DNA from: Armatimonadota bacterium
GTDB taxonomy: Bacteria; Armatimonadota; Hebobacteria; CAIYQO01
Direction of reading: 5' to 3'
DNA length: 36,521 nucleotides
Assembly: GCA_036504255.1 (NCBI GenBank)
Contig: DASXVL010000769.1
Span: 1-36,521 of the forward strand
Shown: positions 1,962 to 33,848 of the stretch, piece by piece
How positions within the stretch are numbered: position 1 is the first letter of the stretch
How the letters are laid out: the number at the start of each line of letters is the position of its first letter
The notes under the pieces: model-generated
What the model was told of the DNA's origin: nothing
The model's input: only the letters and a program-made list of their open reading frames with translations
Database searches by the model: none
Translations under genes and position numbers: made by a program

Positions 1962-3005
1962 TTATTTTCGCGTTGGCACACTCCCACTCGGTTTTAACGG
2001 TGTCGCAGGGCTTTTGGCCTCGCGCAGGGCGCGGCGCACGCGGGTCACCATGGGGTACTCGGGCGCATATCTGGTGAGCAGGTCTACCCAGCGTTGCGCG
2101 GTGGGCAGGTCGCCGGCGGCGAGCGCGGTGTGCGCGAGCCAGCAGAGCGCTTCCACGGGTTGCGGGGGAAGCGGCGTGGCGCTGATAAGGCGCGTGGCCA
2201 CTTCCGCGGTGTGCTGCTGGTCGCCTGCCTGGCGGAAGGCAGCCACGGTGAGGGCGATGACGCGTGTGTCCGGCGCGCCGTAGCGGGCGCGTTGCTGCAA
2301 GACCGCCCACGCTTTGTCCGGCGTGCCTTGCCGCAGGTACTCCTCCGCCAGCAAGCTGGCGGTCGCCATGTCGTTGGGGGTGCCGGCGGCGTTTTCGAGC
2401 AACGCTTGCGTCACGGCGAGCGCGCGCGTGCGATCGCCGGTGGTCACCAACAGGCGGGCGTAGATCACCCGCACGGCATCGGCGCTGGGATGGCCGGGAT
2501 GGGTGTCGAGGTAGCGTCCCAAGGCCGCGACGGGCGGATCGACCAGTCCCGTCTCTTTCATGAGTCCGGTTAGATAGCTCTCCACTTGCGCGGGAGGACA
2601 GGTGACGTCGTCCAACAGGAAGGTGAGGATGCGGTCCGTCGCATCACGCTGGCCTTGCGCGAGGCCGACGGCGGTCAGCTGCACGAGGATGCGCACCGTC
2701 CAGGTGTCGCGCGGGTGCTTGCCCATGACCTGCAGCAACTGCTGCGTGGCCTTGTCGTATTGACGGCACTGGCGATAGGCGGTGGCGAGCTGCACTTGCG
2801 CCTCTTCAAGGGGTTTGGTGAAGGGCCAGGTCGGGAGGGTCACCACGGTTTCCCAGGCTTTCACCGCCGCGCTCCAATCCCCCACCTGCATGGCTTGTTC
2901 GCCGAGACTCCAGAGCTGATCCTGCCGTGCCAACTGCGCCTGCGCCAGGGTGGTGAGGCAGAGCAGCATGCCAAGCAGCAGCAACGTGCGCGCGAGTGCC
3001 TGCAT
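1962..3005 (-). CDS. Secreted TPR-repeat protein (347 aa)
   Basis: ORF track 1962..3005. Signal peptide MQALARTLLLLGMLLCLTTLAQA. The body is Ala/Leu-rich helical repeats of TPR character. Its ATG (3005-3003) overlaps the TAA (3007-3005) of the upstream giant gene as TAATG. Confidence 0.8.
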   Translation of the reverse strand: MQALARTLLLLGMLLCLTTLAQAQLARQDQLWSLGEQAMQVGDWSAAVKAWETVVTLPTWPFTKPLEEAQVQLATAYRQCRQYDKATQQLLQVMGKHPRDTWTVRILVQLTAVGLAQGQRDATDRILTFLLDDVTCPPAQVESYLTGLMKETGLVDPPVAALGRYLDTHPGHPSADAVRVIYARLLVTTGDRTRALAVTQALLENAAGTPNDMATASLLAEEYLRQGTPDKAWAVLQQRARYGAPDTRVIALTVAAFRQAGDQQHTAEVATRLISATPLPPQPVEALCWLAHTALAAGDLPTAQRWVDLLTRYAPEYPMVTRVRRALREAKSPATPLKPSGSVPTRK

Positions 3006-6000
3006 TATTTGCCCCCCTTCAACTGATCGATCTTGCGCAGGGCCGCCACGACGGCGCTGGAATCCGGGTAGCTGTCGATGACCTTTTGGTAGGCCGCGAG
3101 CGCCTCGGGCAGATGAGCGGCTTGCTCGTGGCAGCGCGCCACTTTATACTGCCAGACCGGGCAGAGCGCGTGCGTCGGCTGGCTGGCGAGGAGTTGCGCA
3201 TACCAGGTACCCGCCTGCTGGTAGCCGCTCGCGGTCCCGAGTTGGAAGGCGGAGTCCGCGAGCCAGGCGAGTGTCTCCGGCGACGGCTGGCGTTGGCCGA
3301 TCTTGGTGAGTATGGCTTCGACGTCTTTCGTCCGCCCGGCGCTCTGGTACATGGTCACCAGCGACGCCAACACGGTCGGAATGCGCGCGTCAGATGGATA
3401 GGTCGCGATGAGGTCGAGCCACGCGTGCTCGGCCTGGGCCTCCAGCGCCGTGCCATTCTCGCCCCGCACGCGCGCCGTCAAGGCCAGCCGTTGCGCCCAC
3501 TGCGCCTGCAGGTACAGCAGCGTCGAGCGCGAGAGCTGATCCACCGGCAATTGCGTCACGAAGCGGGCGTAGGCCGGATACCAGTCCGCGGCGACGGTGG
3601 CGTTGACCAGGCGATCCCGCACCAGGGGGAGCACGCGATCGGCGGCGAGCAGCGGCGTGGCCGTCCACGACTCTTCACACTGGCGTTTCAAGGTGGCCAC
3701 CTGTTCGGCAGTCAGGTTCGGCGCCAGCAGCATGCGATTGACCGCTCCATAGAAGACGGCAAGATAGGTCCCCTGCTCATTGAGTGCCTGGTCGGGTTGT
3801 CCCATCGCCACCAGGGTCGCGTTGAGGCCGGTGTGCAGGCTGGTCACGGTGTCCTGCTGGCCCGCCAGGGATAACGCCTGATAGATGCGCGGGGCCAGGG
3901 AGAGGGCGAGGGGCACGTCGTTCGGGTTCTTCGCTTGTTGCAGCGTGCGGATCACCGCCATGCCGTCGGTGAGGAATTGGCTCGGCTGTGTTTTTTCGAT
4001 AGCGCCCAACTGGGCGGCGCGATAGGCGGTGTTTTCTGCCTGCAGTTGCTCGGGGGTGGCGACCTTGGCGAGCGCCGTTTGCAGTTGCGCATGCGTCGCC
4101 TGCACGTCCTCCAGGTGGCCGGCGGCTGCCAGCGGGCCATAGGTACGCCGGGCGATATCGAGCAGGAACGGTACTTCCGCTACGGTGAGTTGGCGTCCGC
4201 CAACGGTGAGCAGCGCCAGCGTCTCGCTTTGGAACTGGGCGGGCAGGGTCTTCTCCAGCGCGGCCAGGCGCGCAGTGTAGTACTGGATCTTCTCCGCTAC
4301 TTGCTGGTCCGGGGTCCCGAATTTGGCCACCCAGGCGGCGAGTTGCTCGTGCGCCGTCTTCGCCTCGGCCCCGCGCCCGGCGATGTAGAGCGGCCCGTAC
4401 GCCCGTCGCCCGAGGTCGAGGAGAAACAGGAGATCACCGGGGGTGACCGGGCGGGCGGGGGCGAACTGCGCCAACGCCTCGGTGAGGAAGGCGGGCACAT
4501 CGGTGCGCTCCAGGCTCCCCAGACGGACGGTCAGATAGGCCAGTCCCTCCACCCGGGCCGGTTCCGCTTGATTCATGGTCGTCAGTGCGCTTCGCAGGCC
4601 CGCATGCAGCGTGTCCGCCGCCGCGCCCTGCCCGCTCGCATAGAGCGCGAGATAGACGCGTGGCGCCAGGCCGGCAGCAAGTTGGGCCTCCGGCCAGCTC
4701 TGCGCCGTTTTCGCGGCCGCGAGCACGCCTTGCGCTTCGGTGAGGAACTGCGCGGGGGCCGTGCGTTCCAGGTTCCCCAAGCGGGCGGTCAGGTAGGCTT
4801 GGGCTTCCAGGCGTGCCTGCTCCGGTTGATTCATGGTCGTCAATGCACTTTGCAGGCCCGCATGCGCCGCCTCGGCGTCCGCGCCCTGCCCTGCCGCAAA
4901 GAGCGCCGGGTACACGCGCGGGGCCAGACTCACCGCCACCTGCGCCTCAGACCACACGCGCGCCGTCTTGGCGGTCGTCATGATCTGCGTGGCCTCGCGC
5001 AAAAATTGGGCGGGCTGGCTCTTTTCCAGGTTGGCCAGGGAGACCGTCTGATACTGGATGTCGTCCGCTTGCGCCGCCTCGGGCAGCTTAGCCTGCAGCA
5101 AGGCGGTCTTCAGCTTTTCGTGCAATGCTTTCGCGTCCGCCGGACGGCCAGTACTGAGCAGCGGACTATACATGCGCCGTGCCAGGTCTTGCAAGCCGGG
5201 GGCCTCGGCCGCCGTCACCGGGTGGTCGAGCGTCACCAGGGTGTGCGCTTCCGTGAGGAATTGCGTGGGATCGCTCTTTTCCAGGGCGGCCAGGCGCAGG
5301 GGCTGGTAGACCTGATCGTCTTTTTGTGCGAGGTCGGAGAGATTGGCGGCGCGCAAGGCGGTGCTGAGGGCCTCGTGGACGCGCTGCGCCTCGGCCAGTT
5401 TGCCGGCGGTGATGAGCGCGGGATAGAGGCGCGGCGTCACGCTGGCGCCAAACTGCAGCTCAATGAGCGGCGAAGCGCCGGTCAAGGCGCTGACCAGGGC
5501 GCTCGCCTGGGTAAGGAACAGCGCCGGTTGCAGCTTCTCCAGGGCGTTGAGCTGGGCGGCACGGTACAGAAACGCTTCTGCCTGTACCTGGTCGGCGGTG
5601 GCCATTTTGGCGAGCGCCGCTTGCAACTGTTCGTGCACCGGCTTCAGCTCATCGGCACGGCCGGCGACCGTGAGCGGGCCATAGGTGCGCCGGGCGAGAT
5701 CGAGCAGGAACGGCACTTCGCTGAGCATGAGCTGACGTCCGCCGACCGTCAAGTGCGCCAAGGCCTCGGTTTGAAACAGGGGAGGCTGTGTCTTTTCCAG
5801 ATAGGCCAGACGCGCGCCGAGATACAGCGTCTTCTCCAGCAACTGCTGGTCCGCGGTCCCGAGTTTGCCCATCCAGGCGGCGAGTTGCTCATGCGCGGTC
5901 TTCGCCTCGGCCCCGCGCCCGGCGGTGTAGAGCGGCCCATAGCTGCGGCGCGCGAGGTCGACCAGAAAGGGCAGATCGCCGGTGGTCACCGCCCGCGTGG

Positions 6001-9000
6001 CAGTGAACTGCGCAAGTGCCTCGGTGAGGAAGGTGGCCGGATCGGTGCGTTCCAAACTGCCCAGGCGGGCGGTCAGGTAGGCCAGCGCTTCCAGGCGCGC
6101 CTGTTCCGGTTGCGACATGGCCTTGAGGGCGGCTTGCAGGCCCGCGTGCACGGTGTCGACGTCCCCGCCCTGCCCGGCGGCGTAGAGCGCCGGGTACACC
6201 CGTGGGGCCAGGCCGGCGGCCACTTGCGCCTCGGGCCAGGCCTGGGCGGTCTTGGCCGCAGCCAACACCACTTTCGCCTCGCTCAAGAATTGGGTCGATT
6301 GGGTTTTCTCCAGCGTCGCCAGATACGCCGTCTGATACTGCACCTCGTCCGCTTGCACCGTCTCGGGCAGGTTCGCCTGCTGCAAGGCGGTCTTCAGGCG
6401 CGCATGCAGCGCTTTCGCATCAGCCAGACGTCCGGCGTTCAACAGCGGCGTATAACTCCGCCGCGCCAGATCTTGCAGCACGAGCGCCTCAGTCGCCGTC
6501 ACGGGATGGTCGAGCGTCAGTTGGGCTTGCGCTTCCGTAAGGAATTGCGCGGGATCACTCTTCTCCAGCGTGGCCAGGCGCAGTGGCTGGTAGCGCAGCT
6601 CTTCCTGCTGCGCCAGGTCCGGGAGGTTTGCCGCGCGCAGGGCAACAAGCAGCCCGTCATGCAGCCGCTGCGCCTCGGCCAGTTGCCCGGCCGCCACCAG
6701 CGTCGGATAGAGGCGCGGGGTCAGGCTGGCCGCCACGCGCAGGTCGGCGGCGGGCGAGGTCGCGGTGACCCCGGCGACGAGCGCGCGCCCTGCGGCGGCG
6801 AATTGGGCGGGCTGGGTCTTTTCCAACAGCGCCAGGGCGAGGGTCTGATACTGAAACTCGTCGGCTTGCACGGCGTCAGGCAGCTTTGCCTGCAATAAAG
6901 CCGTCTTGAGCCGCTCGTGCACGGCCTTGGCGTCCGCTTGCCGTCCCGCCGCGAAGAGCGGCACATACATGCGTCGTGCGAGATCCTGCAGGCCGATCAA
7001 TTCCGTGGCGGTCTGCGGCTTATCGAAGGTCATCAGCGTCTGTGCGACCGTCACAAATTGCGCAGGATCGCTCTTTTCCAGCACGGACAAACGCAGCGTC
7101 TGATAGCTCTGCTCATCTTTCTGCGCGAGGTCCGGGAGATTGGCGGCGCGCAAGGCGGTGATGAGGGCCTCGTGGACGCGCTGCGCTTCGGCCAGTTTGC
7201 CGGCGGTGATGAGCGGGGGGTAGAGGCGCGGGGTGAGACCGGCGCCCACTTGCAGATCGACGACCGCTGACGCGCCGGTCAAGGCGCTGACAAAGGCGCT
7301 CGCCTGTGTGAGAAACTGTACGGGTTGCTGCTTTTCCAGCACCGCAAAACGGGCGTTGATGAACTGCGCCTGCTCCCCTTGCCGCTGCTCGAGCGTCCCC
7401 CATTTCGCCAATAGCGGCTGCAGGGCGACATGAAGGCGCGTGGCGTCGTCCGCGCGGTTGACGCTATACAGCGGTCCATAGACGCGGCGCGCCAGATCGA
7501 GCACAAACGGCAATTCTCCCGGGGCCACCGTGCGCGTCTCCAACGCCAGTTGCGGGAGGGCTTCCGTCACAAAGCGCGTCGGATCGACCCGTTCCCAATA
7601 GGCCAGCCGTGCGGTGAGATAGCCTTGTGCTTCCACGCGGGACTGATCCGGCTGATTCAAGGTTTTCAATGTCGCTTGCAGGCCGTCATGTAACGCCAGG
7701 GCGTCGTCCAACTGCCCATTTTGACAAAGGGCGAGGTAGACGCGGGGCGCTAGCGCCAGCGCTTGCTGGAGCTCGGTCGGCGTCTTCGCCGTTTTTGCGG
7801 CGACCAGCACGGCGCGTCCTTGCGTCAGGAAGAGCTGCGGTTGTGGTTTTTCCAGGGCATTGACTTGCGCCAATTGATAATTCAGGGTATCGGCTTGCTG
7901 CTGCTCGGGCGTGCCGCTTTTCGCGAGCAGCGCCTGCAGTTGCTCATGCACGGCGGTGATCTCGCTCCCCCGTCCGAGCGTGACGAGCGGCCCATAGACC
8001 CGCCGCGCCAGATCCGTGAGGAAGGCCGCCTCGTTGGGCACGCCGGGGCGCACGCCGCCGGTCAAGAACGGCAGCGCCTCGGTGAGGAATTGCGGAAGAC
8101 TGGTGCGTTCGCAATAGCCCAAGCGGGCCGTCAAGTAGCCCAGTTGCTCGACTTTGGCCTGTTCAGCTTGTCCGACGGTGGGCAGCAGGCGCTGCAGCGC
8201 CTCGTGTCCGCGTTGCGCGTCCTCCAGGGAGCCGGCGGCGCACAACGCCAGGTAGATGCGCGGCGCGAGCGTCGTGGTCAGTTGCAGCTCGGGCCAGGTT
8301 TTGGCGTCGGGCACGGCGGCGAGCAGAGCGCGTCCGGCCGTGACACACTGTTGCGGCTGCAGCTTTTCCCAACCCCCGAAGACGGCGACACGGTAGGTGA
8401 ACGTTTCGCCCGCTTGCCAATTATTCGGGTTCTGAAAGGTTCCGCACGTCGTCTGAAAGCTCTCGTGCAGCGTCTTCGCCGCCTCGAACTGGCCGTTTAG
8501 CGTCAACCGGATATACGCGCGTGCCAGGAAGTCATAGGCGAGCTGCAATTCGGGCACGGTGCGCGCCGCGGCGAGCGACGCCGTCACTTCGCGCACCATG
8601 GTGTCGGGCTGGGTGCTTTCCAAATAGGGCAGGCGCGCGCGGGCGTAGACATTCGTCTCCGTCCACGCCCAGTTATTCGGATTATTCAGTCGCGCGTAGG
8701 CCTGTTGCAGCGCCTCGTGCGCCTGCGTCGCGTCAGTCGCACGCCCCAGCGTGAAGAGGCGCGGGTACACGCGCGCCGTAATCTCGGTCGGCACGCGGAG
8801 GTCTTCCAGGTTGGTGGTCGTGCTCGTCGCACGAATGAGTTGCAGCGCCTCCGTCAGGAAGAGCTCCGGCTGCGTGGCCTCCAGTGTCGTCAGCCGCCCA
8901 CGCAGATAGGCGGCGGTATCGGTGACCGGCCAATCGGTGATGCTCAACTCGGCACAGCGTTTCAGCACGGTCTCATGCGCGCGCTGCGCCTCCCCTCCCC

Positions 9001-9853
9001 GCCCGAGTTGCAGCAAGGGGACGTAGACTTTGGCGGCCAGTTGCACCGGCAGTTGCAGGTCGGGACGGGTGGCGGCGCTGGCCAGGCGCTCGACCACCGG
9101 GAGCGCTTCACTGAGAAACCGTGTGGTGTTGACACGCTCCAGCCCGGTCAGGTAGACGCCCAGATCGGTGTCTTGCAAGCCGTTGGGATTATGCTGCTGC
9201 GCAATGAGGGCTTGCACACGAGTCGAGATGGCCTTGGCCTCGTCATACTTGCCCGCGGTGAGCAACACGGGGTAGAGCCGGCCCGCGACGGTGATGCGCC
9301 AGCGCAGGTCATCGAGCGGCACGGGGGTACCGGTGGCGGTGATAATGGCTGTCGCCTCGCTGATAAACTTGGCGGGGTCGCTCTTCTCATAATAATTCAA
9401 GCGCAGCAGTTGCACGCGCGGCGTCGAGTTCGGCGGCAGCAGGTCACGTGTGGTCACCGCGTCGAGCATGGCGAACGCTTTGTCCGGCATGGTGGGGGCA
9501 GTCAGCACAAAATAGGCCTCCGCCGCCTGCCAGAGGGTATCGGATTTCGGCCAGCGTTGACAGATGAGCGTCCACAGCGGTTCCCCGTCCGTCCGCCGCC
9601 CCAGCGCCAGATAACATTTAAAGAGCAGTACGGTGGCTTCCGGCTGGTATTTACTGGCAGGAAACTGTTGGCGGAAGGTCTCCAACACCGGCACGGCATC
9701 GCCATACAGTTGTTGTTGCACGGCGACGCGGGCGCGGCCGATGAGCATTTCATCCGGCGAGGGTTGCGCGCACACGGGGAGCGTGGTCCAGCAGAGAAGC
9801 AGGCACAGGCCCCACAAGCAGAATGTACGGAGAGACAGCGCACACGGCGTCAT
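3005..9853 (-). CDS. Giant secreted helical-repeat (TPR-like) protein, about 2282 aa
   Basis: ORF track 3005..10180. The first 109 codons of that ORF run through the repeated non-coding element and are rejected. ATG at 9853 has AAAGGA about 7 nt upstream and gives signal peptide MTPCALSLRTFCLWGLCLLLCWTTLPVCA. The N- and C-terminal regions look like ordinary TPRs. The centre is about 22 tandem 85-86-aa modules. Confidence 0.85.
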   Translation of the reverse strand: MTPCALSLRTFCLWGLCLLLCWTTLPVCAQPSPDEMLIGRARVAVQQQLYGDAVPVLETFRQQFPASKYQPEATVLLFKCYLALGRRTDGEPLWTLICQRWPKSDTLWQAAEAYFVLTAPTMPDKAFAMLDAVTTRDLLPPNSTPRVQLLRLNYYEKSDPAKFISEATAIITATGTPVPLDDLRWRITVAGRLYPVLLTAGKYDEAKAISTRVQALIAQQHNPNGLQDTDLGVYLTGLERVNTTRFLSEALPVVERLASAATRPDLQLPVQLAAKVYVPLLQLGRGGEAQRAHETVLKRCAELSITDWPVTDTAAYLRGRLTTLEATQPELFLTEALQLIRATSTTTNLEDLRVPTEITARVYPRLFTLGRATDATQAHEALQQAYARLNNPNNWAWTETNVYARARLPYLESTQPDTMVREVTASLAAARTVPELQLAYDFLARAYIRLTLNGQFEAAKTLHESFQTTCGTFQNPNNWQAGETFTYRVAVFGGWEKLQPQQCVTAGRALLAAVPDAKTWPELQLTTTLAPRIYLALCAAGSLEDAQRGHEALQRLLPTVGQAEQAKVEQLGYLTARLGYCERTSLPQFLTEALPFLTGGVRPGVPNEAAFLTDLARRVYGPLVTLGRGSEITAVHEQLQALLAKSGTPEQQQADTLNYQLAQVNALEKPQPQLFLTQGRAVLVAAKTAKTPTELQQALALAPRVYLALCQNGQLDDALALHDGLQATLKTLNQPDQSRVEAQGYLTARLAYWERVDPTRFVTEALPQLALETRTVAPGELPFVLDLARRVYGPLYSVNRADDATRLHVALQPLLAKWGTLEQRQGEQAQFINARFAVLEKQQPVQFLTQASAFVSALTGASAVVDLQVGAGLTPRLYPPLITAGKLAEAQRVHEALITALRAANLPDLAQKDEQSYQTLRLSVLEKSDPAQFVTVAQTLMTFDKPQTATELIGLQDLARRMYVPLFAAGRQADAKAVHERLKTALLQAKLPDAVQADEFQYQTLALALLEKTQPAQFAAAGRALVAGVTATSPAADLRVAASLTPRLYPTLVAAGQLAEAQRLHDGLLVALRAANLPDLAQQEELRYQPLRLATLEKSDPAQFLTEAQAQLTLDHPVTATEALVLQDLARRSYTPLLNAGRLADAKALHARLKTALQQANLPETVQADEVQYQTAYLATLEKTQSTQFLSEAKVVLAAAKTAQAWPEAQVAAGLAPRVYPALYAAGQGGDVDTVHAGLQAALKAMSQPEQARLEALAYLTARLGSLERTDPATFLTEALAQFTATRAVTTGDLPFLVDLARRSYGPLYTAGRGAEAKTAHEQLAAWMGKLGTADQQLLEKTLYLGARLAYLEKTQPPLFQTEALAHLTVGGRQLMLSEVPFLLDLARRTYGPLTVAGRADELKPVHEQLQAALAKMATADQVQAEAFLYRAAQLNALEKLQPALFLTQASALVSALTGASPLIELQFGASVTPRLYPALITAGKLAEAQRVHEALSTALRAANLSDLAQKDDQVYQPLRLAALEKSDPTQFLTEAHTLVTLDHPVTAAEAPGLQDLARRMYSPLLSTGRPADAKALHEKLKTALLQAKLPEAAQADDIQYQTVSLANLEKSQPAQFLREATQIMTTAKTARVWSEAQVAVSLAPRVYPALFAAGQGADAEAAHAGLQSALTTMNQPEQARLEAQAYLTARLGNLERTAPAQFLTEAQGVLAAAKTAQSWPEAQLAAGLAPRVYLALYASGQGAAADTLHAGLRSALTTMNQAEPARVEGLAYLTVRLGSLERTDVPAFLTEALAQFAPARPVTPGDLLFLLDLGRRAYGPLYIAGRGAEAKTAHEQLAAWVAKFGTPDQQVAEKIQYYTARLAALEKTLPAQFQSETLALLTVGGRQLTVAEVPFLLDIARRTYGPLAAAGHLEDVQATHAQLQTALAKVATPEQLQAENTAYRAAQLGAIEKTQPSQFLTDGMAVIRTLQQAKNPNDVPLALSLAPRIYQALSLAGQQDTVTSLHTGLNATLVAMGQPDQALNEQGTYLAVFYGAVNRMLLAPNLTAEQVATLKRQCEESWTATPLLAADRVLPLVRDRLVNATVAADWYPAYARFVTQLPVDQLSRSTLLYLQAQWAQRLALTARVRGENGTALEAQAEHAWLDLIATYPSDARIPTVLASLVTMYQSAGRTKDVEAILTKIGQRQPSPETLAWLADSAFQLGTASGYQQAGTWYAQLLASQPTHALCPVWQYKVARCHEQAAHLPEALAAYQKVIDSYPDSSAVVAALRKIDQLKGGK
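3734..9364 (-). repeat. Coding tandem array of about 22 modules of 85-86 aa (about 256 nt period)
   Basis: Recurrent pattern F-LTEA...LQ..LA(P/R)R.Y..L..AG....A...H..L...L.......Q...E...Y...RL..LEK..P..F. Thirteen modules (about 3974-7312) fall into five subtypes arranged a-b-a-b-c-d-e / a-b-c-c-d-e. The DNA is visibly near-identical between 5349-5560 and 7145-7350. Confidence 0.8.
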
Positions 9854-9892
9854 GATGATTCCTTTCCACGGGCATCGGTCAGGTCGGTTTAC

Positions 9893-10263
9893 AGTCATGG
9901 ACCTCCGGCAGAGCCGGAGGCTTGATGTTGTGTATCGCGCAAAGCGGTGTACTGTTACTTGGCGATGCGCCTCGTCAGTGATCCCATCCAGGCTAGTGTT
10001 TCCGGCCGGGGATAGCCGGGCTATGGCCCTGTTCCAGACAGTGCTAAGGACTTTAAGTTGGGCTGGTGTCAACAGCACTGTCTGGAACAGGGCCCAAGCC
10101 CGGCTATCCCCGTGTGCTTTGATAGGGCAACCACGCACGAAGGCATTCCGCTGCTTTCCGTGTGTGAACGATGACAGCACACGCAGAGCGCCGCATGATC
10201 AGTCCCGGAACTGTCACACGCTGGGAGTATCCCCGGCAGAGCCGGGGGTTTACCCTGGATTAA
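9893..10263 (+). ncRNA. Candidate structured RNA / dispersed repeat, copy A (371 nt, unrecognised family)
   Basis: Aligns by hand to 29016-29302 with unrelated flanks. Hairpins:
- 9902-9920, CCTCCGG-CAGAG-CCGGAGG.
- 9930-9952, with loop GCAAA.
- 10008-10111, a long helix.
- 10159-10183.
- 10203-10226.
- 10231-10247, CCCCGG-CAGAG-CCGGGG.
Several G-U pairs exist only if the plus strand is the RNA. Confidence 0.45.
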
Positions 10264-28968: not shown

Positions 28969-28992
28969 CCCTTCCGCAGGGATGCGGAAGGG
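28969..28992 (+). terminator. GC-rich hairpin downstream of the hydrolase gene
   Basis: CCCTTCCGC-AGGGAT-GCGGAAGGG, 44 nt after the stop at 28925. No U-tract. A second smaller hairpin lies at 28931-28950. Confidence 0.35.
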
Positions 28993-29015
28993 AGCCCCGA
29001 AGAAGAACGGAAAGC

Positions 29016-29302
29016 AATCATCGGCCTCCGGCAGAGCCGGAGGCGTGATGTTGTGTACCGCGCAAAGCGGTGTACTGATCCTTGGCTCTGCGCCTCGTAA
29101 GTAATTCCATCCAGACTGTCCTTTCCGGCCGGGGATAGCCCGGCTATCCCGTTCGCTTTGATAGTGCAACCACGCCCGAGGGCATTCCTCTGCTTTCCGT
29201 GTGTGAACGATGACTGCATACGCAGAGAGCATCATGACCAGTCCCGGAACTGTCACACGCTGGGAATCTCCCCGGCAGAACCGGGGGGTTACCCTGAATT
29301 AA
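29016..29302 (+). ncRNA. Candidate structured RNA / dispersed repeat, copy B (287 nt)
   Basis: Homologous to 9893-10263. Hairpins at 29025-29043, 29053-29075, 29131-29150 (the short version of the variable helix), 29198-29222 and 29270-29286. It sits between convergent genes, so it cannot be a 5-prime leader on either strand. Confidence 0.45.
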
Positions 29303-29472: not shown

Positions 29473-32400
29473 TCATCGGTTCATGAGTGACAGCACCTCC
29501 GCGTCGAGCATCACACCGGCGTGGATACTGAACAGGTCGCCTTGCGGTGACCAGGCGCCGTTGGGGTTACTATTGCCGCCAAGTACGTCCAATGCTCGTG
29601 CGGTGGTTGCCGGTGTGCGGTCGGCGAACCATCCCTGATTGCCGGTCTGCGTATCGCAGATATACAGTCCATCGCGATAGAACTTGGTGGTTGTCACGAG
29701 GGACTGCGAACCGGCCGGTACCACCATGGTGTAGAAATGCCACTCATTGGGGATGAGGTAGCCGGTGGTCGGGCTTAGGTTCTGCACCGTGCCGTCGGAC
29801 GAGGCGGCGTAGACGGTGACGCACGTGGGGTCGTTGTACGTCGTCATGACGTTCACCACGGCGTTCGTCAGAATCGCCCGCTGGTAGGTGGGGTTATTGA
29901 TTGTCCCCGGGTTCAGCCAGAAGGAAAGCGTCAGCCCCCCAGCGTCCTTGACCGCCTGGCCGCGCAGATTCGGGTGATCGGGCGCAGTCATTAACACCGA
30001 GGTCGCCCCCGAACCGGTCAGCACATGGTTTCTGGTGTAGCTGTTCCCCCGGACCGTCACCTGGCCAACATTCTGCACCGTCGCCTGTGCGCCCAGCGTG
30101 CCGTTGTATGTTGTCCCGTCCACGCCGGTGTTTCTGCCCAGCGTGTCGTAGTCTTCAAAGGCATACGCCATCGGCGTTCCCGTGACGGGGGCATACGACC
30201 CGAAAAGCGAGGCCACATCTTGATCGTTCATCACGCCGGCGATCAGTCGGAAGGCATCGGCTTTCGGTGACCAGGCCCCATTGCTATTGGTATTGCCGCT
30301 AAAGAGATTGATCGACTGCGACACGTCTTTCGGGAGCCGGTCTGCTGTCCAGCCTAATCCGCCGGTCTGCGTGTTGCAGACGAACACGCCATCACGATAG
30401 AACTTGGTGGTCGACACGGCGGCTTGCGTGCCTTGCGGCACCACGATGGTATAGTAATGCCACTCGTTGGGGACGAGATAGCCGGTGGTGGAATTCAGGT
30501 TTTGTGTCGTGCTATCCGACGCCATCGCGTACACCGTTAACTTGCTCACGTCGTTATAGCACGTGATGATACTCAACGACGAACTCGTCAAGAGATAGCG
30601 CTGGTAAGTGGGATTGCCGATGGCGCCAGGATTCATCCAGAAGGAGACCGTCAGTCCCCCGGCGTCCTTGACCGGTTGGCCGCGCAGGTTTGTATCGTCT
30701 GGGACGCTTAGCAACGCCGAGGTAGCACTCGTGCCTGACACGACATGGACGAGGTCATAGGGATTGCTCCCTACCGTCACCCGGCCGATATTCTGGATGC
30801 TCGCCTGGGCGCCCAGTGTGCCGTCGTACGTCGTGCCATCCACGCCGGTGTTTTTGCCGGCCGTGCCTTGCTCCTCGAAGGTGTATTCCAAGCGAGGATT
30901 ATCCGCCAGGGCGTACAGTTGCCGCTGCGGAATGACCTCTTTCGGTTGTAGCGTACCGGACCAGGAAAGGCGTACCTGCGCATTCGATGTCGGGTTTCCG
31001 TACACCGCCTGCAGCCCATACTTGTACCCTGCCCGCAAGGTAATGGCAGTACTGCTGCTTTCGGTCGGCGTGGAGGTCTGCGACTTATTGATGATCTGCT
31101 GGCCGTCCACCCACAATTGAAAACTCCCGTCACAGCGGACGGTGAACGTGTAGGTGTCATCATACTTGGGCTGTAGTTGCCCGTTCCAATGGACCGCGTA
31201 ATTGGTGGGTGACGAGATATCCGTGCCTGACGGCACGGCGTTCCCCCACGCAAAATCCACGTTGGCGTCAATGCGCCGGGTGACCGGCGTCGCGCCATCG
31301 TAGTAATCGGCGGTGAGCCCGGCGCCGGTACCGATGCTGGCGCCGACGTAGGCGTAGTCCGTCGCATAGGTAAAGTTGTACTTGGTGATCGTGGCGTTGA
31401 TCGGCTCACCCTGCTTTTGCAGGATGCACTGGCCATTGCGCCACAGTTCGAAGCTCTGCGTGCCGGTATTGAACGACACCTGGGTATGTACGATGCCGGC
31501 GGCGACCTGGTAGGTATTGGTCACGCCACCGGTAATAACGTGCAACTCGGCGGCGGATTTCAGCATGGTCGTCACGTAGATGGTATCGGTGACGGTGCCA
31601 ATGAACGATGTAACCGGCCCAGAGGGATCGGAGCAGGTGGCATTCTTGGGGTGCGTGCGGTACGCGTAAACGAGCATTTCCTCATTGATCGGGGGCTGCG
31701 TGCCTGTCTTATACCAATTAATGTAGTAGCGCGTCAGCTCGGAGAGGCCACGGTGGCTCTTGAAGAACCCAGAGGCGTACTGGCTCAAATAGCTGCCGAC
31801 ATCGGCCACCGGGCTGTAGTAGCTGGCTTCGGTCCAATCGTTCCAGGTCGTCATCTCGATCCATTGCGGTTGCTGCGTCTGGATGATCGAATCCCACTGC
31901 GTGCTGACGCCCTGACCGCCGGTGAATTCAAAGTAGCGGCGACCGCCCGGCTGCGTGCAGCCCCAGTATTGCGGCGATGTCGACGACATGTGCACGGCGT
32001 AATTCTCCTTCATCAACCGCGCGTACGCTTCCTGTGCTGCCGACAGGGTGGCCGGCGTACCGGCGGCGCCGAAGAAAAAGAGCCCGTTCGCCACATCCTT
32101 CCACCACAAATCATTGTCGGCTTTGATGCGGTCATACGTGATACTTCCCGCCTCATCGGAGTAGCGGTCATAAAAGAACGGTTCAAACCATACGTTAATG
32201 CCGCTGGACTGCAGCGCGGTGAGCACGTTGTTGCGCCACCAGTCGCGCGCCCCCGTTCCACCGCCGCCTTGCGCCTGCCCGCCGAAGGTGGAGAGCACCG
32301 GACGCCCTTGATAGCTGAGGTAGTTCGGATGGCTGGCATACGTTTGCATCATATTGACGATATCCGGATAGTCCAACCCGGTCGCCATGTCGGCGGAGAA

Positions 32401-33396
32401 GAACAGCTTAAAGTCGGTGCCCAACTCTTCCGCCGCCCGGAACATCTCCGAAGTGCGCGTCTGGTAATACGTAGCGGTGGACCAGGCGCCGCAGTTGAGC
32501 GCAAAACCGTCGATGCCCATCGCCTGCGCATCTTGAATGTCCCGCTTAAAGGCGTTCACGTTGTAGCCATAGACGCCCATGGCCACCATGTAGTGGGCAA
32601 AGACCTTGCGGAATTGTTGCGCATACAACGCCTGCACGTCGGCGTCGGTGATCACCCCGGCATAGATTTGAAACCCGTCGCCTTGGGGCGACCAGGCGCC
32701 GTTGGCGTTGCTATTGCCGCCTAGGATATCGAAAACGCGGGCCGTGTCCCTCGGTATACGCGCGGCGGTCCATCCCAGGTTGCCGGTCTGCGTATTACAG
32801 ATAAACTGTCCATCGCGATAGAACTTGGTGGTCGTCACGAGCGATTGTATGCCATGCGGTATCACGATCGCATAGTGGTGCCATTCATTCGCGATGAGGT
32901 AGCCCGGAATGGGGTTGAGGTTTTGCGTGGTGCCGTCCGACGCTGTCGCATACACCGTGACGCGGCTCACATCATTGTACGTCGTCGCGATGTTCACCGC
33001 CGTGTTCGTCACAATCGCCCGTTGATAGGTGGGATTGCCGATGGCGCCCGGGTTCAGCCAGAACGAGACCGTCATGCCCCCGGCATCCTTGAGCGGCTGC
33101 CCGCGCAGGTTCGCGTCGTCAGGTACAGTCATCAGCACCGAATAGGCGCCCGTACCGGTGAGGATATAACCGGCACTGTACTTATCCGTTCCCGCCGCGA
33201 TGCGCCCGATATTGACGACGCTCGCCTGGGCGCCCAATGCACCGTTGTACGTCGCGCCATCGACGCCGGTGTTCTTGCTCGGCGTGCTGGTGTCCTCGAA
33301 GCCATACGATAATCGCATGACCGCGGCATCCACCCGTACCATCCCACAGAATGTACACAGCATTCCCACAACCATGATGACTCTCAACAGGTTCAT
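29473..33396 (-). CDS. Secreted multidomain alpha-1,3-glucanase: LamG-like, GH71, PA14, LamG-like, LamG-like (1307 aa)
   Basis: ORF track. ATG preceded by AAGGAG 7 nt upstream. Signal peptide MNLLRVIMVVGMLCTFCGMVRVDA.
- GH71 motif (about 31327-32610): VFAHYMV...GIDGFALNCG...FKLFFSADM.
- PA14 (about 30907-31323): LTADYYDG...VDFAWG...YAVHWNGQL...DGSFQLWVDG. Confidence 0.85.
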   Translation of the reverse strand: MNLLRVIMVVGMLCTFCGMVRVDAAVMRLSYGFEDTSTPSKNTGVDGATYNGALGAQASVVNIGRIAAGTDKYSAGYILTGTGAYSVLMTVPDDANLRGQPLKDAGGMTVSFWLNPGAIGNPTYQRAIVTNTAVNIATTYNDVSRVTVYATASDGTTQNLNPIPGYLIANEWHHYAIVIPHGIQSLVTTTKFYRDGQFICNTQTGNLGWTAARIPRDTARVFDILGGNSNANGAWSPQGDGFQIYAGVITDADVQALYAQQFRKVFAHYMVAMGVYGYNVNAFKRDIQDAQAMGIDGFALNCGAWSTATYYQTRTSEMFRAAEELGTDFKLFFSADMATGLDYPDIVNMMQTYASHPNYLSYQGRPVLSTFGGQAQGGGGTGARDWWRNNVLTALQSSGINVWFEPFFYDRYSDEAGSITYDRIKADNDLWWKDVANGLFFFGAAGTPATLSAAQEAYARLMKENYAVHMSSTSPQYWGCTQPGGRRYFEFTGGQGVSTQWDSIIQTQQPQWIEMTTWNDWTEASYYSPVADVGSYLSQYASGFFKSHRGLSELTRYYINWYKTGTQPPINEEMLVYAYRTHPKNATCSDPSGPVTSFIGTVTDTIYVTTMLKSAAELHVITGGVTNTYQVAAGIVHTQVSFNTGTQSFELWRNGQCILQKQGEPINATITKYNFTYATDYAYVGASIGTGAGLTADYYDGATPVTRRIDANVDFAWGNAVPSGTDISSPTNYAVHWNGQLQPKYDDTYTFTVRCDGSFQLWVDGQQIINKSQTSTPTESSSTAITLRAGYKYGLQAVYGNPTSNAQVRLSWSGTLQPKEVIPQRQLYALADNPRLEYTFEEQGTAGKNTGVDGTTYDGTLGAQASIQNIGRVTVGSNPYDLVHVVSGTSATSALLSVPDDTNLRGQPVKDAGGLTVSFWMNPGAIGNPTYQRYLLTSSSLSIITCYNDVSKLTVYAMASDSTTQNLNSTTGYLVPNEWHYYTIVVPQGTQAAVSTTKFYRDGVFVCNTQTGGLGWTADRLPKDVSQSINLFSGNTNSNGAWSPKADAFRLIAGVMNDQDVASLFGSYAPVTGTPMAYAFEDYDTLGRNTGVDGTTYNGTLGAQATVQNVGQVTVRGNSYTRNHVLTGSGATSVLMTAPDHPNLRGQAVKDAGGLTLSFWLNPGTINNPTYQRAILTNAVVNVMTTYNDPTCVTVYAASSDGTVQNLSPTTGYLIPNEWHFYTMVVPAGSQSLVTTTKFYRDGLYICDTQTGNQGWFADRTPATTARALDVLGGNSNPNGAWSPQGDLFSIHAGVMLDAEVLSLMNR
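29476..30171 (-). repeat. LamG-like module copy 3
   Basis: aa 1076-1307. By eye it is the closest to copy 1. Confidence 0.7.
30199..30894 (-). repeat. LamG-like module copy 2
   Basis: aa 835-1066; same conserved blocks as copy 1. Confidence 0.7.
32617..33318 (-). repeat. LamG-like module copy 1 (coding paralogous repeat)
   Basis: aa 27-260. Shares NTGVDG.TYNG.LGAQA...NLRGQ..KDAGG.T.SFW.NPG...NPTYQR...TTKFYRDG...NGAWSP with the other two modules. Confidence 0.7.
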
Positions 33397-33848
33397 AATC
33401 AGCTCCTTTCTTGCACCGATACACTTTGCTCGGCGCCGGCAAATTTGCGAGACCGGTCCATCGGGTGAATTGATAATGAATGGCCATCATGGCGCTTGCG
33501 CGCGTGCATGAAGTTGTCTGATAGACGCACAATGCTGCGGTAGAAATCCTGCACCTGATCAGTGCGATCCGGCCTCTGGATGCATATGCGTGAACGCTTG
33601 TCCCTCCGTTTCTTGTTGAGTTTGTGCTGGGAGTAGCTCTAGCACTGTGTGGAAGCCGATGAGGGCTTCAGCCCGAAATCGCGCCGGTATGATCATGGGC
33701 GCTCGCGACCAAGTGCAAGGCATCTCCTATGACCTTTCCTCGGAAGGCTGAGCGCGGCGGACGCCGGCTTCCAAACGGTGCTAGACCTACAGCTTGGTCT
33801 CTCTTCCAGACGGTGACTATCACTCCAGCCTGTTCTTCATAACGTTAT

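Follow-up and report, generated by a model that had tools for sequence, protein, structure and literature searches.

An intergenic repeat in an Armatimonadota bacterium that very probably derives from IS200-type elements and lacks a Y1 transposase gene

A stretch of 36,521 nucleotides from an Armatimonadota bacterium (the entire contig DASXVL010000769.1 of assembly GCA_036504255.1; hereafter the window) carries, between two minus-strand genes, an intergenic element at positions 9893-10263 that had previously been described from its letters as an unrecognised conserved element with RNA-like structure. This sequence-only reading drew on a second copy elsewhere in the window, on five proposed base-paired helices, and on wobble pairs that were taken to identify the plus strand as the likely RNA. 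The question raised by this locus is whether the repeat represents a new structured noncoding RNA, or whether its hairpins belong to something else.

Pairwise alignment establishes that 9893-10263 (copy A, 371 nt) indeed corresponds to 29016-29302 (copy B, 287 nt, located in the gap between convergent genes), and that the sequences flanking the two copies bear no relation to each other. The shared sequence is divided into two gapless blocks, one pairing 9892-10024 with 29015-29147 (133 nt, 86% identity) and the other pairing 10109-10263 with 29148-29302 (155 nt, 89%), and overall identity is approximately 88% across 288 common bases. The sole difference in length is an 84-nt segment (10025-10108) that is present only in copy A. 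An earlier count by hand, of about 36 substitutions or single-base indels in addition to this segment, was correct with regard to the 84 nt, whereas the remaining differences amount to exactly 35 substitutions, without any single-base indel.

Both copies recur unchanged in a JGI assembly made independently from the same organism (contig L006 for copy B), and therefore the repeat is not an assembly artefact. This organism is also present in JGI metagenome 3300035523 and in one Logan run. Contig L006 is otherwise identical to the window across 15 kb, and lacks 27 nt just upstream of copy B (window 28973-28999, one hairpin arm plus its loop). Either the strains are polymorphic at this site, or the hairpin was assembled differently.

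Copies A and B share no open reading frame, and their substitutions exhibit no codon-position pattern, which together indicate that the element is noncoding. An accidental open frame of copy A was nonetheless useful as a phmmer query, as it retrieved one protein (P0138) and thereby a third copy (copy 3) at 3344-3629 of another contig (L136) of the same Armatimonadota metagenome (JGI). A fragment was also found on contig L008 (3542-3630), which is 92% identical to 9999-10087 and spans most of the 84-nt palindrome. The three-copy alignment sets the ends of the element at 9893 (AGTCAT...) and 10263 (...GGATTAA), with pairwise identities of 88% (A-B), 90% (A-3) and 86% (B-3). In total, this metagenome holds three complete copies and one fragment, all at unrelated loci and with sharp boundaries.

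Other searches for copies were negative within their respective scopes. Contigs from the nearest protein relatives (~65% amino-acid identity; GC 45-46% in L131-L133) carry no copy, and BLAST searches of plasmids and phages with the element gave no match. Two interior 20-mers, CCCGGAACTGTCACACGCTG in genomes and CCGGAACTGTCACACGCTGG in metagenomes, returned none and one chance match, respectively; both would have missed copy 3 as well. Three patterns scanned against viruses yielded one chance match, nothing, and non-specific noise, and a six-frame pseudo-protein search for spurious ORFs across further copies yielded nothing.

Copy 3 occupies the full gap between two convergent genes. The ORF of P0138 (L136 2657-3649), a real Amidase_3 enzyme, continues for 100 codons inside this copy, the TTAA end of which is directly adjoined by the stop codon of the opposite gene. 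This arrangement looks like an insertion, and not like a resident RNA gene. Removal of copy 3 with a cut placed just before TTAA generates CAG CGT TAA, which restores an in-frame stop to the amidase gene. This outcome is consistent with cleavage before TTAA and is not decisive; other cuts also give nearby stops. The last 100 residues of P0138 are translated copy 3, and this C-terminal extension is spurious, the element having removed or displaced the stop codon while one of its frames is open throughout. The extension is an annotation artefact that already sits in protein databases.

Each of the three copies carries CCTCCGG-CAGAG-CCGGAGG (9902-9920 in copy A) near one end and CCCCGG-CAGAG-CCGGGG (10230-10247) near the other, with the same loop, on the same strand, and in direct orientation. 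The 13-nt core of these hairpins (CCGGCAGAGCCGG) occurs four times in the window, compared with 0.24 occurrences expected. Because a nearly identical CCGG-CAGAG-CCGG hairpin in the same orientation at both ends is the typical layout of IS200/IS605 elements, this family was adopted as a working idea.

Exact matches to the 20-nt hairpin at 9902-9921 number at least 119 and come from very diverse bacterial genomes, including those of Acidobacteriota, Nitrosomonas, Klebsiella, Phytobacter, Planctomycetota, Armatimonadota and others. Many of these matches sit at contig ends, as is expected of a repeated mobile element, and the neighbourhood of the 20-mer is conserved, as a transposon end would be. 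The matches are typically preceded by AGTAA, AGTCA or GTTAA, and they share a common order: a 9-nt leader (AGTAAGTAT, AGTCAGATA, GTTAAATGA and the like), the hairpin itself, a hairpin of the form AACCGC-TCAAA-GCGGTT, often a third hairpin, and finally the terminus of an opposite-strand gene. At 37 of the at least 119 matches listed, an ORF resembling a Y1 transposase ends no more than 250 nt from the hairpin on the opposite strand, and 25 of these 37 ORFs are near full length. For example, ORFs from loci L182, L246 and L180 match Pfam PF01797 (Y1_Tnp, 'Transposase IS200 like') with E = 3e-37, 3e-35 and 3e-38, respectively, and the matches on E. coli plasmids carry the annotation IS200/IS605 family transposase.

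The opposite end of the element is likewise found in these relatives. At the Klebsiella locus (L182), where the transposase ORF comprises 143 residues, a segment nearly identical to window 10230-10263 (CCCCCGGCAAAGCCGGGGG-TTTACCGGATTTAA) lies approximately 550 nt beyond. Among the matches listed, 20 loci carry a second hairpin (CCCCCGGCAGAGCCGGGGG) that leads into TTTACC...ATTA(A), an end that is almost identical to window 10230-10263 and that falls approximately 600-655 nt from the left boundary, the length of a full element. At 21 other loci among the matches listed, mostly from Acidobacteriota, the second hairpin is only 183-302 nt away. These are short forms without tnpA, and they make up at least 21 of the 42 loci for which the positions of both hairpins were established.

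When the three copies (reverse complement) are placed in a multiple alignment together with four full-length elements (L238, L246, L224 and L180), approximately 75 nt align at each end, and tnpA appears as one large gap; both ends were also seen in the L182 sequence. In the five full-length relatives inspected in detail, tnpA is the sole substantial ORF. A full-length relative is present in another Armatimonadota MAG (L170).

The four aligned full-length elements have a further feature that is absent from the window copies. The loop of their 5' UTR stem-loop carries GTGAACCGCTCAAAG, the exact reverse complement of which lies within the right-end hairpin region (CTTTGAGCGGTTCAC). The result is a 15-nt internal inverted repeat, lying approximately 100 nt in from either end, through which the 5' UTR might pair with the 3' UTR, or one end of the element with the other.

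As judged from this alignment, the tnpA-sense (top) strand of copies A and B corresponds to the window minus strand, with the left end at 10263 and the right end at 9893. The left-end terminus (10230-10263; copy B 29269-29302) comprises the hairpin described above, a 12-nt tail, and TTAA at 10260-10263. This TTAA is found at the left-end boundary in all three copies, with ATTA(A) in most relatives, and may represent a flanking target motif. The adjacent internal box (10203-10226; copy B 29242-29265) reads ACTCCCAG-CGTGTGACAGT-TCCGGGA in the sense orientation. In the multiple alignment, this box (ACTCCCAG..TGACA..TCCGGGA) is the homologue of ACTCCCAGAGTTTGACA.TTCCGGGA, a box of the family, and the region includes a TTGACA-like box.

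The CGTGTG/CACACG stem-loop (10159-10183; copy B 29198-29222) aligns with the 5' UTR stem-loop that covers the tnpA ribosome-binding site, the counterpart of which in L246, for example, is CTCGTGTG...CACACAGGAG-ATG. The left-end hairpin (~nt 13-29) and the 5' UTR stem-loop are placed as in the published anatomy of IS200 (PMC4513863). In the minus-strand sense, a weak ribosome-site-like GGAAAG lies 3' of the stem-loop. A probable remnant of the tnpA start codon is the ATG at 10146-10144, after which the codons read MPSCVVALSKHTG, compared with M..SLSHT.W in intact TnpA. The faint resemblance of about a dozen codons to the TnpA N terminus is suggestive only. A tblastn search of the element with TnpA finds nothing.

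The site of the missing tnpA is occupied by a long palindrome (10007-10112), of which the 84-nt part at 10025-10108 is unique to copy A. Copies B and 3 retain just the outer GGGATAGCC/GGCTATCCC stem (29131-29151 in copy B), and the 84 nt extend a hairpin, the outer stem of which is common to copies A and B. Near-identical 9-nt direct repeats (CCGGGCTAT and CCCGGCTAT) flank the 84-nt segment, and copies B and 3 each retain one version of the repeat, with either C or G at its centre. This pattern fits either a small nested palindromic insertion or recurrent deletion between the 9-nt repeats. A second, unrelated palindromic intergenic repeat of approximately 130-150 nt was observed at window 33637-33786 and at L008 3617-3745, with 87-89% identity. 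Its outer arms carry a 14-nt motif (AGCACTGTnTGGAA / TTCCAnACnGTGCT) that also forms the inner arms of the 84-nt palindrome of copy A (10032-10045 and 10074-10087). This motif occurs four times in the window versus 0.49 expected, and the two palindromes are fused on L008.

Towards the right end, copy A carries two post-stop hairpins, at 9971-9961 and 9952-9930. The latter, termed here the second right-end hairpin (9930-9952; copy B 29053-29075), corresponds to the family motif AACCGC-TTTGA-GCGGTT, located after the tnpA stop codon in full-length relatives, and probably represents the tnpA terminator. The right-end terminus (9893-9921; copy B 29016-29044) is formed by the hairpin at 9902-9920 and a 9-nt tail (...TCCATGACT in the sense orientation, ending ...GACT). 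Terminal inverted repeats are absent, in that AGTCAT... and ...GGATTAA are not inverted versions of each other, and no direct repeat is common to the flanks of the three copies.

All five helices proposed by the sequence-only reading exist. They coincide with both end hairpins, the second right-end hairpin, the 5' UTR stem-loop and the left-end box, and so represent known kinds of family features.

The homology of both ends to tnpA-bearing elements, the absence of tnpA, the dispersed and sharp-ended copies, and the lack of terminal inverted repeats and target duplication lead us to conclude that the three copies are, with high probability, non-autonomous derivatives of IS200-type elements (IS200/IS605 family) that lack the Y1 transposase gene. 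They look like internal-deletion derivatives. Such derivatives would have retained, at the left end, the subterminal hairpin, the TTGACA-like box, the 5' UTR stem-loop and possibly the first dozen or so tnpA codons, and, at the right end, the post-stop hairpins plus the subterminal hairpin.

By analogy with IS608, ISDra2 and ISGst, elements of this type would move by single-strand 'peel-and-paste' transposition. Specifically, a Y1 (HUH) TnpA protein made in trans would bind the two similar subterminal hairpins on one strand, and would cut beside a short AT-rich left-end motif (here TTAA or ATTA) and a few bases past the right-end hairpin. The excised single-stranded circle would then be reinserted beside the same motif without target duplication. 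The studied IS200/IS605 mechanism has been summarised elsewhere, together with protein-less elements composed of a left end and a right end (PATE-like; PMC10055086). For the window copies, we infer from these systems that mobilisation would occur in trans, and likewise which strand would be active, the exact cut sites and the role of each hairpin. No cognate tnpA was found in the approximately 63 kb available from this organism (window, L008, L009 and L136). The divergence of 10-14% between copies suggests that the insertions are old, and the family may be both old and inactive here.

The strand preference noted by the sequence-only reading is real. In the hairpins of copies A, B and 3, nearly all G-T wobbles are on the plus strand (roughly 20 cells versus 2), which is an excess that a purely DNA-level model acting on the sense strand does not predict. 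The proposal that the plus strand is the RNA strand is only partly upheld, as the mRNA of the parent tnpA would be the minus strand, whereas the plus strand is the strand of art200 in IS200. The asymmetry could have arisen from an art200-like RNA or from strand-biased deamination.

We therefore considered whether the IS200-derived copies also express a plus-strand, art200-like antisense sRNA that the host may use. This sRNA would cross the former tnpA 5' UTR and end at the left-end hairpin. In the IS200 elements of Salmonella and E. coli, art200 is a 90-nt sRNA opposite the tnpA 5' UTR, and the left-end hairpin has been described as a bidirectional terminator (PMC4513863). The matching region of the window (~10150-10250, plus strand) is the best-conserved block (89%), its plus strand ends in hairpin CCCCGGCAGAGCCGGGGG followed by UUUA, the wobble pairs favour this strand, and copy A carries one promoter-like plus-strand site (10171-10199). 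However, this site was not found in copy B and no promoter is conserved between the copies, permissive Rfam scans of both copies uncovered no similarity to IS200-related or other sRNA families, and strand-biased deamination could also yield the wobble asymmetry. On balance, expression of such an RNA is unlikely. We regard as somewhat less likely still that the host has co-opted the copies, either through a plus-strand art200-like sRNA ending at the left-end hairpin or as bidirectional terminators or insulators at gene ends. If such co-option were true, the plus-strand G-T excess would reflect selection on that RNA.

A free-standing family of structured noncoding RNA genes on the plus strand, with helices selected for an RNA function unrelated to transposition, would need support from the pattern of substitutions. 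With copies A and B alone, RNAalifold yields four compensatory changes, seven one-sided changes and no broken pairs. When the 35 substitutions were placed at random 300 times and the analysis was rerun, at least four compensatory changes arose in 4% of trials (P = 0.04), and an equal or better energy arose in 1.3% (P = 0.013). In addition, folding of copy B gives z = -2.97 for the plus strand versus -1.79 for the minus strand, and the G-T wobbles favour the plus strand. The structure predicted from copy B alone yields two compensatory changes and 10 broken pairs (P about 0.08). The covariation signal between copies A and B is suggestive only.

Copy 3 provides a separate test of these helices. 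Its 19 own changes touch nine predicted base pairs, of which seven are broken and two kept, compared with 8.8 broken pairs expected at random (P = 0.26). The 10203-10208/10221-10226 helix, which was among the five originally proposed, is disrupted by two transversions, and the helix that carries compensatory changes between copies A and B (10112-10118/10185-10191) loses three of its six pairs. By contrast, the terminal hairpins persist in copy 3, as do the 9930-9952 hairpin with one mismatch and the 10159-10183 stem with two. Interior helices beyond the end structures show no sign of selection.

With regard to known RNA families, no match to Rfam was obtained at gathering thresholds for the whole window, and in permissive scans of both copies the only matches were miRNA-like and fell on the long palindrome. 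This agrees with the statement of the sequence-only reading that the element could not be matched to an RNA it recognised. The homology of both ends to tnpA-bearing IS200-type ends, the loss of pairing in copy 3 at a rate no better than random, the absence of a conserved promoter, the lack of an Rfam match, and the position of copy 3 wedged between two abutting convergent ORFs all argue against an independent RNA gene family, which we consider very improbable. The structured-RNA reading was right that the hairpins are real, but these hairpins are part of a transposon, and both ends of the element are homologous to those of IS200-type elements that bear a Y1 transposase.

Weakest of all, and scarcely credible, is a PATE of the TnpB/IscB branch whose interior is an omega RNA scaffold used in trans by TnpB or IscB: it would account for the two similar end hairpins and for a long-range helix closing at the element end, and protein-less PATE-like elements of Geobacillus often encode omega RNAs (PMC10055086), but full-length relatives, with approximately 600-655 nt between their hairpins, are too short to accommodate tnpB or iscB, the interior aligns with the tnpA 5' UTR and post-stop hairpins and not with the 3' end of a nuclease gene, and neither HEARO nor other Rfam models match. 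An omega-RNA PATE had been our first working idea, and was dropped when the five inspected full-length relatives were found to carry tnpA only. Three other candidates were rejected. A protein-coding element does not fit, as no frame is open in all copies and third-position bias is absent; the adenine-specific substitutions of a template/variable pair from a diversity-generating retroelement were not seen; and the three copies have neither the terminal inverted repeats nor the target-site duplication of a MITE mobilised by a DDE transposase.

Several observations concern the neighbouring genes of the window and its sister contigs. Window 3005-9853 (minus strand) encodes a giant secreted protein of approximately 2280 residues with many diverged repeats, for which only a faint TPR match was obtained. 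The repeat spacings in its DNA are multiples of approximately 257 nt (258, 513 and 771 nt, for example), and the JGI call of this protein begins 105 nt downstream, leaving out the signal peptide. An unusual cluster of GH71 (alpha-1,3-glucanase-like) genes extends over window 29473-33396, L008 678-3482 and 7398-9989, and L009 6713-9496. At least three of these genes lie within approximately 45 kb of this genome, and L009, which comes from the same sample, adds a fourth. One member carries a PA14 fusion with internal 720-nt repeats, and another a fusion to an FGE-sulfatase domain.

The assignment of the repeat to tnpA-less IS200-type derivatives is mainly of value for annotation, and it raises no new biological question. 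Recognition of such derivatives averts both false calls of novel RNAs and false protein extensions. One 20-nt end hairpin is exactly conserved across many phyla and tnpA-less short forms are frequent, which offers a useful handle for cataloguing these elements.

The closest comparison is with IS200 itself (Salmonella and E. coli, 707 bp), in which a bidirectional terminator hairpin occupies nt 12-34 and an inverted repeat in the 5' UTR hides the Shine-Dalgarno sequence (PMC4513863). Several IS200 hairpins, including the terminator and the 5' UTR stem-loop, have been described as acting in single-stranded nucleic acid, including RNA (PMC4513863). The window element resembles IS200 in having two similar, direct subterminal hairpins, with the left-end hairpin approximately 12 nt from the tip, a stem-loop in the 5' UTR that covers the ribosome site, hairpins beyond the tnpA stop codon, and neither terminal inverted repeats nor target duplication. 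Moreover, full-length relatives with these ends encode a Y1 transposase (PF01797), as IS200 does. Unlike IS200, the window element has no tnpA and measures only 287 nt, or 371 nt with the nested palindrome. The relatives found form a broad environmental clade, and the likeness to Salmonella IS200 described here is one of anatomy. The plus strand of the element lies opposite tnpA across the 5' UTR, as does art200 (STnc490), with no sequence match or conserved promoter found here.

Other families of short repeats invite comparison as well. REP sequences and REPINs are short, hairpin-forming intergenic repeats recognised by RAYT proteins (Y1-like/HUH), and REPINs are inverted doublets of approximately 100 nt. 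The window hairpins are instead direct, approximately 310 nt apart, and homologous to IS200 ends, whereas REPINs lack flanking left and right ends of an insertion sequence. Nezha and other cyanobacterial MITEs derived from IS200/IS605 elements are short, multi-copy derivatives that retain transposon ends only. The window element is similar in keeping only the ends, and differs in its parent element and host phylum. Finally, the PATEs that have been described are mostly of TnpB-type (IS1341/IS605) origin and often include an omega RNA, whereas the window element is of a tnpA-only IS200 type with no omega RNA scaffold. Like the PATEs of haloarchaea and the PATE-like ISGst elements of Geobacillus, it consists of a protein-less left end and right end that are presumed to be mobilised by TnpA in trans (PMC10055086).
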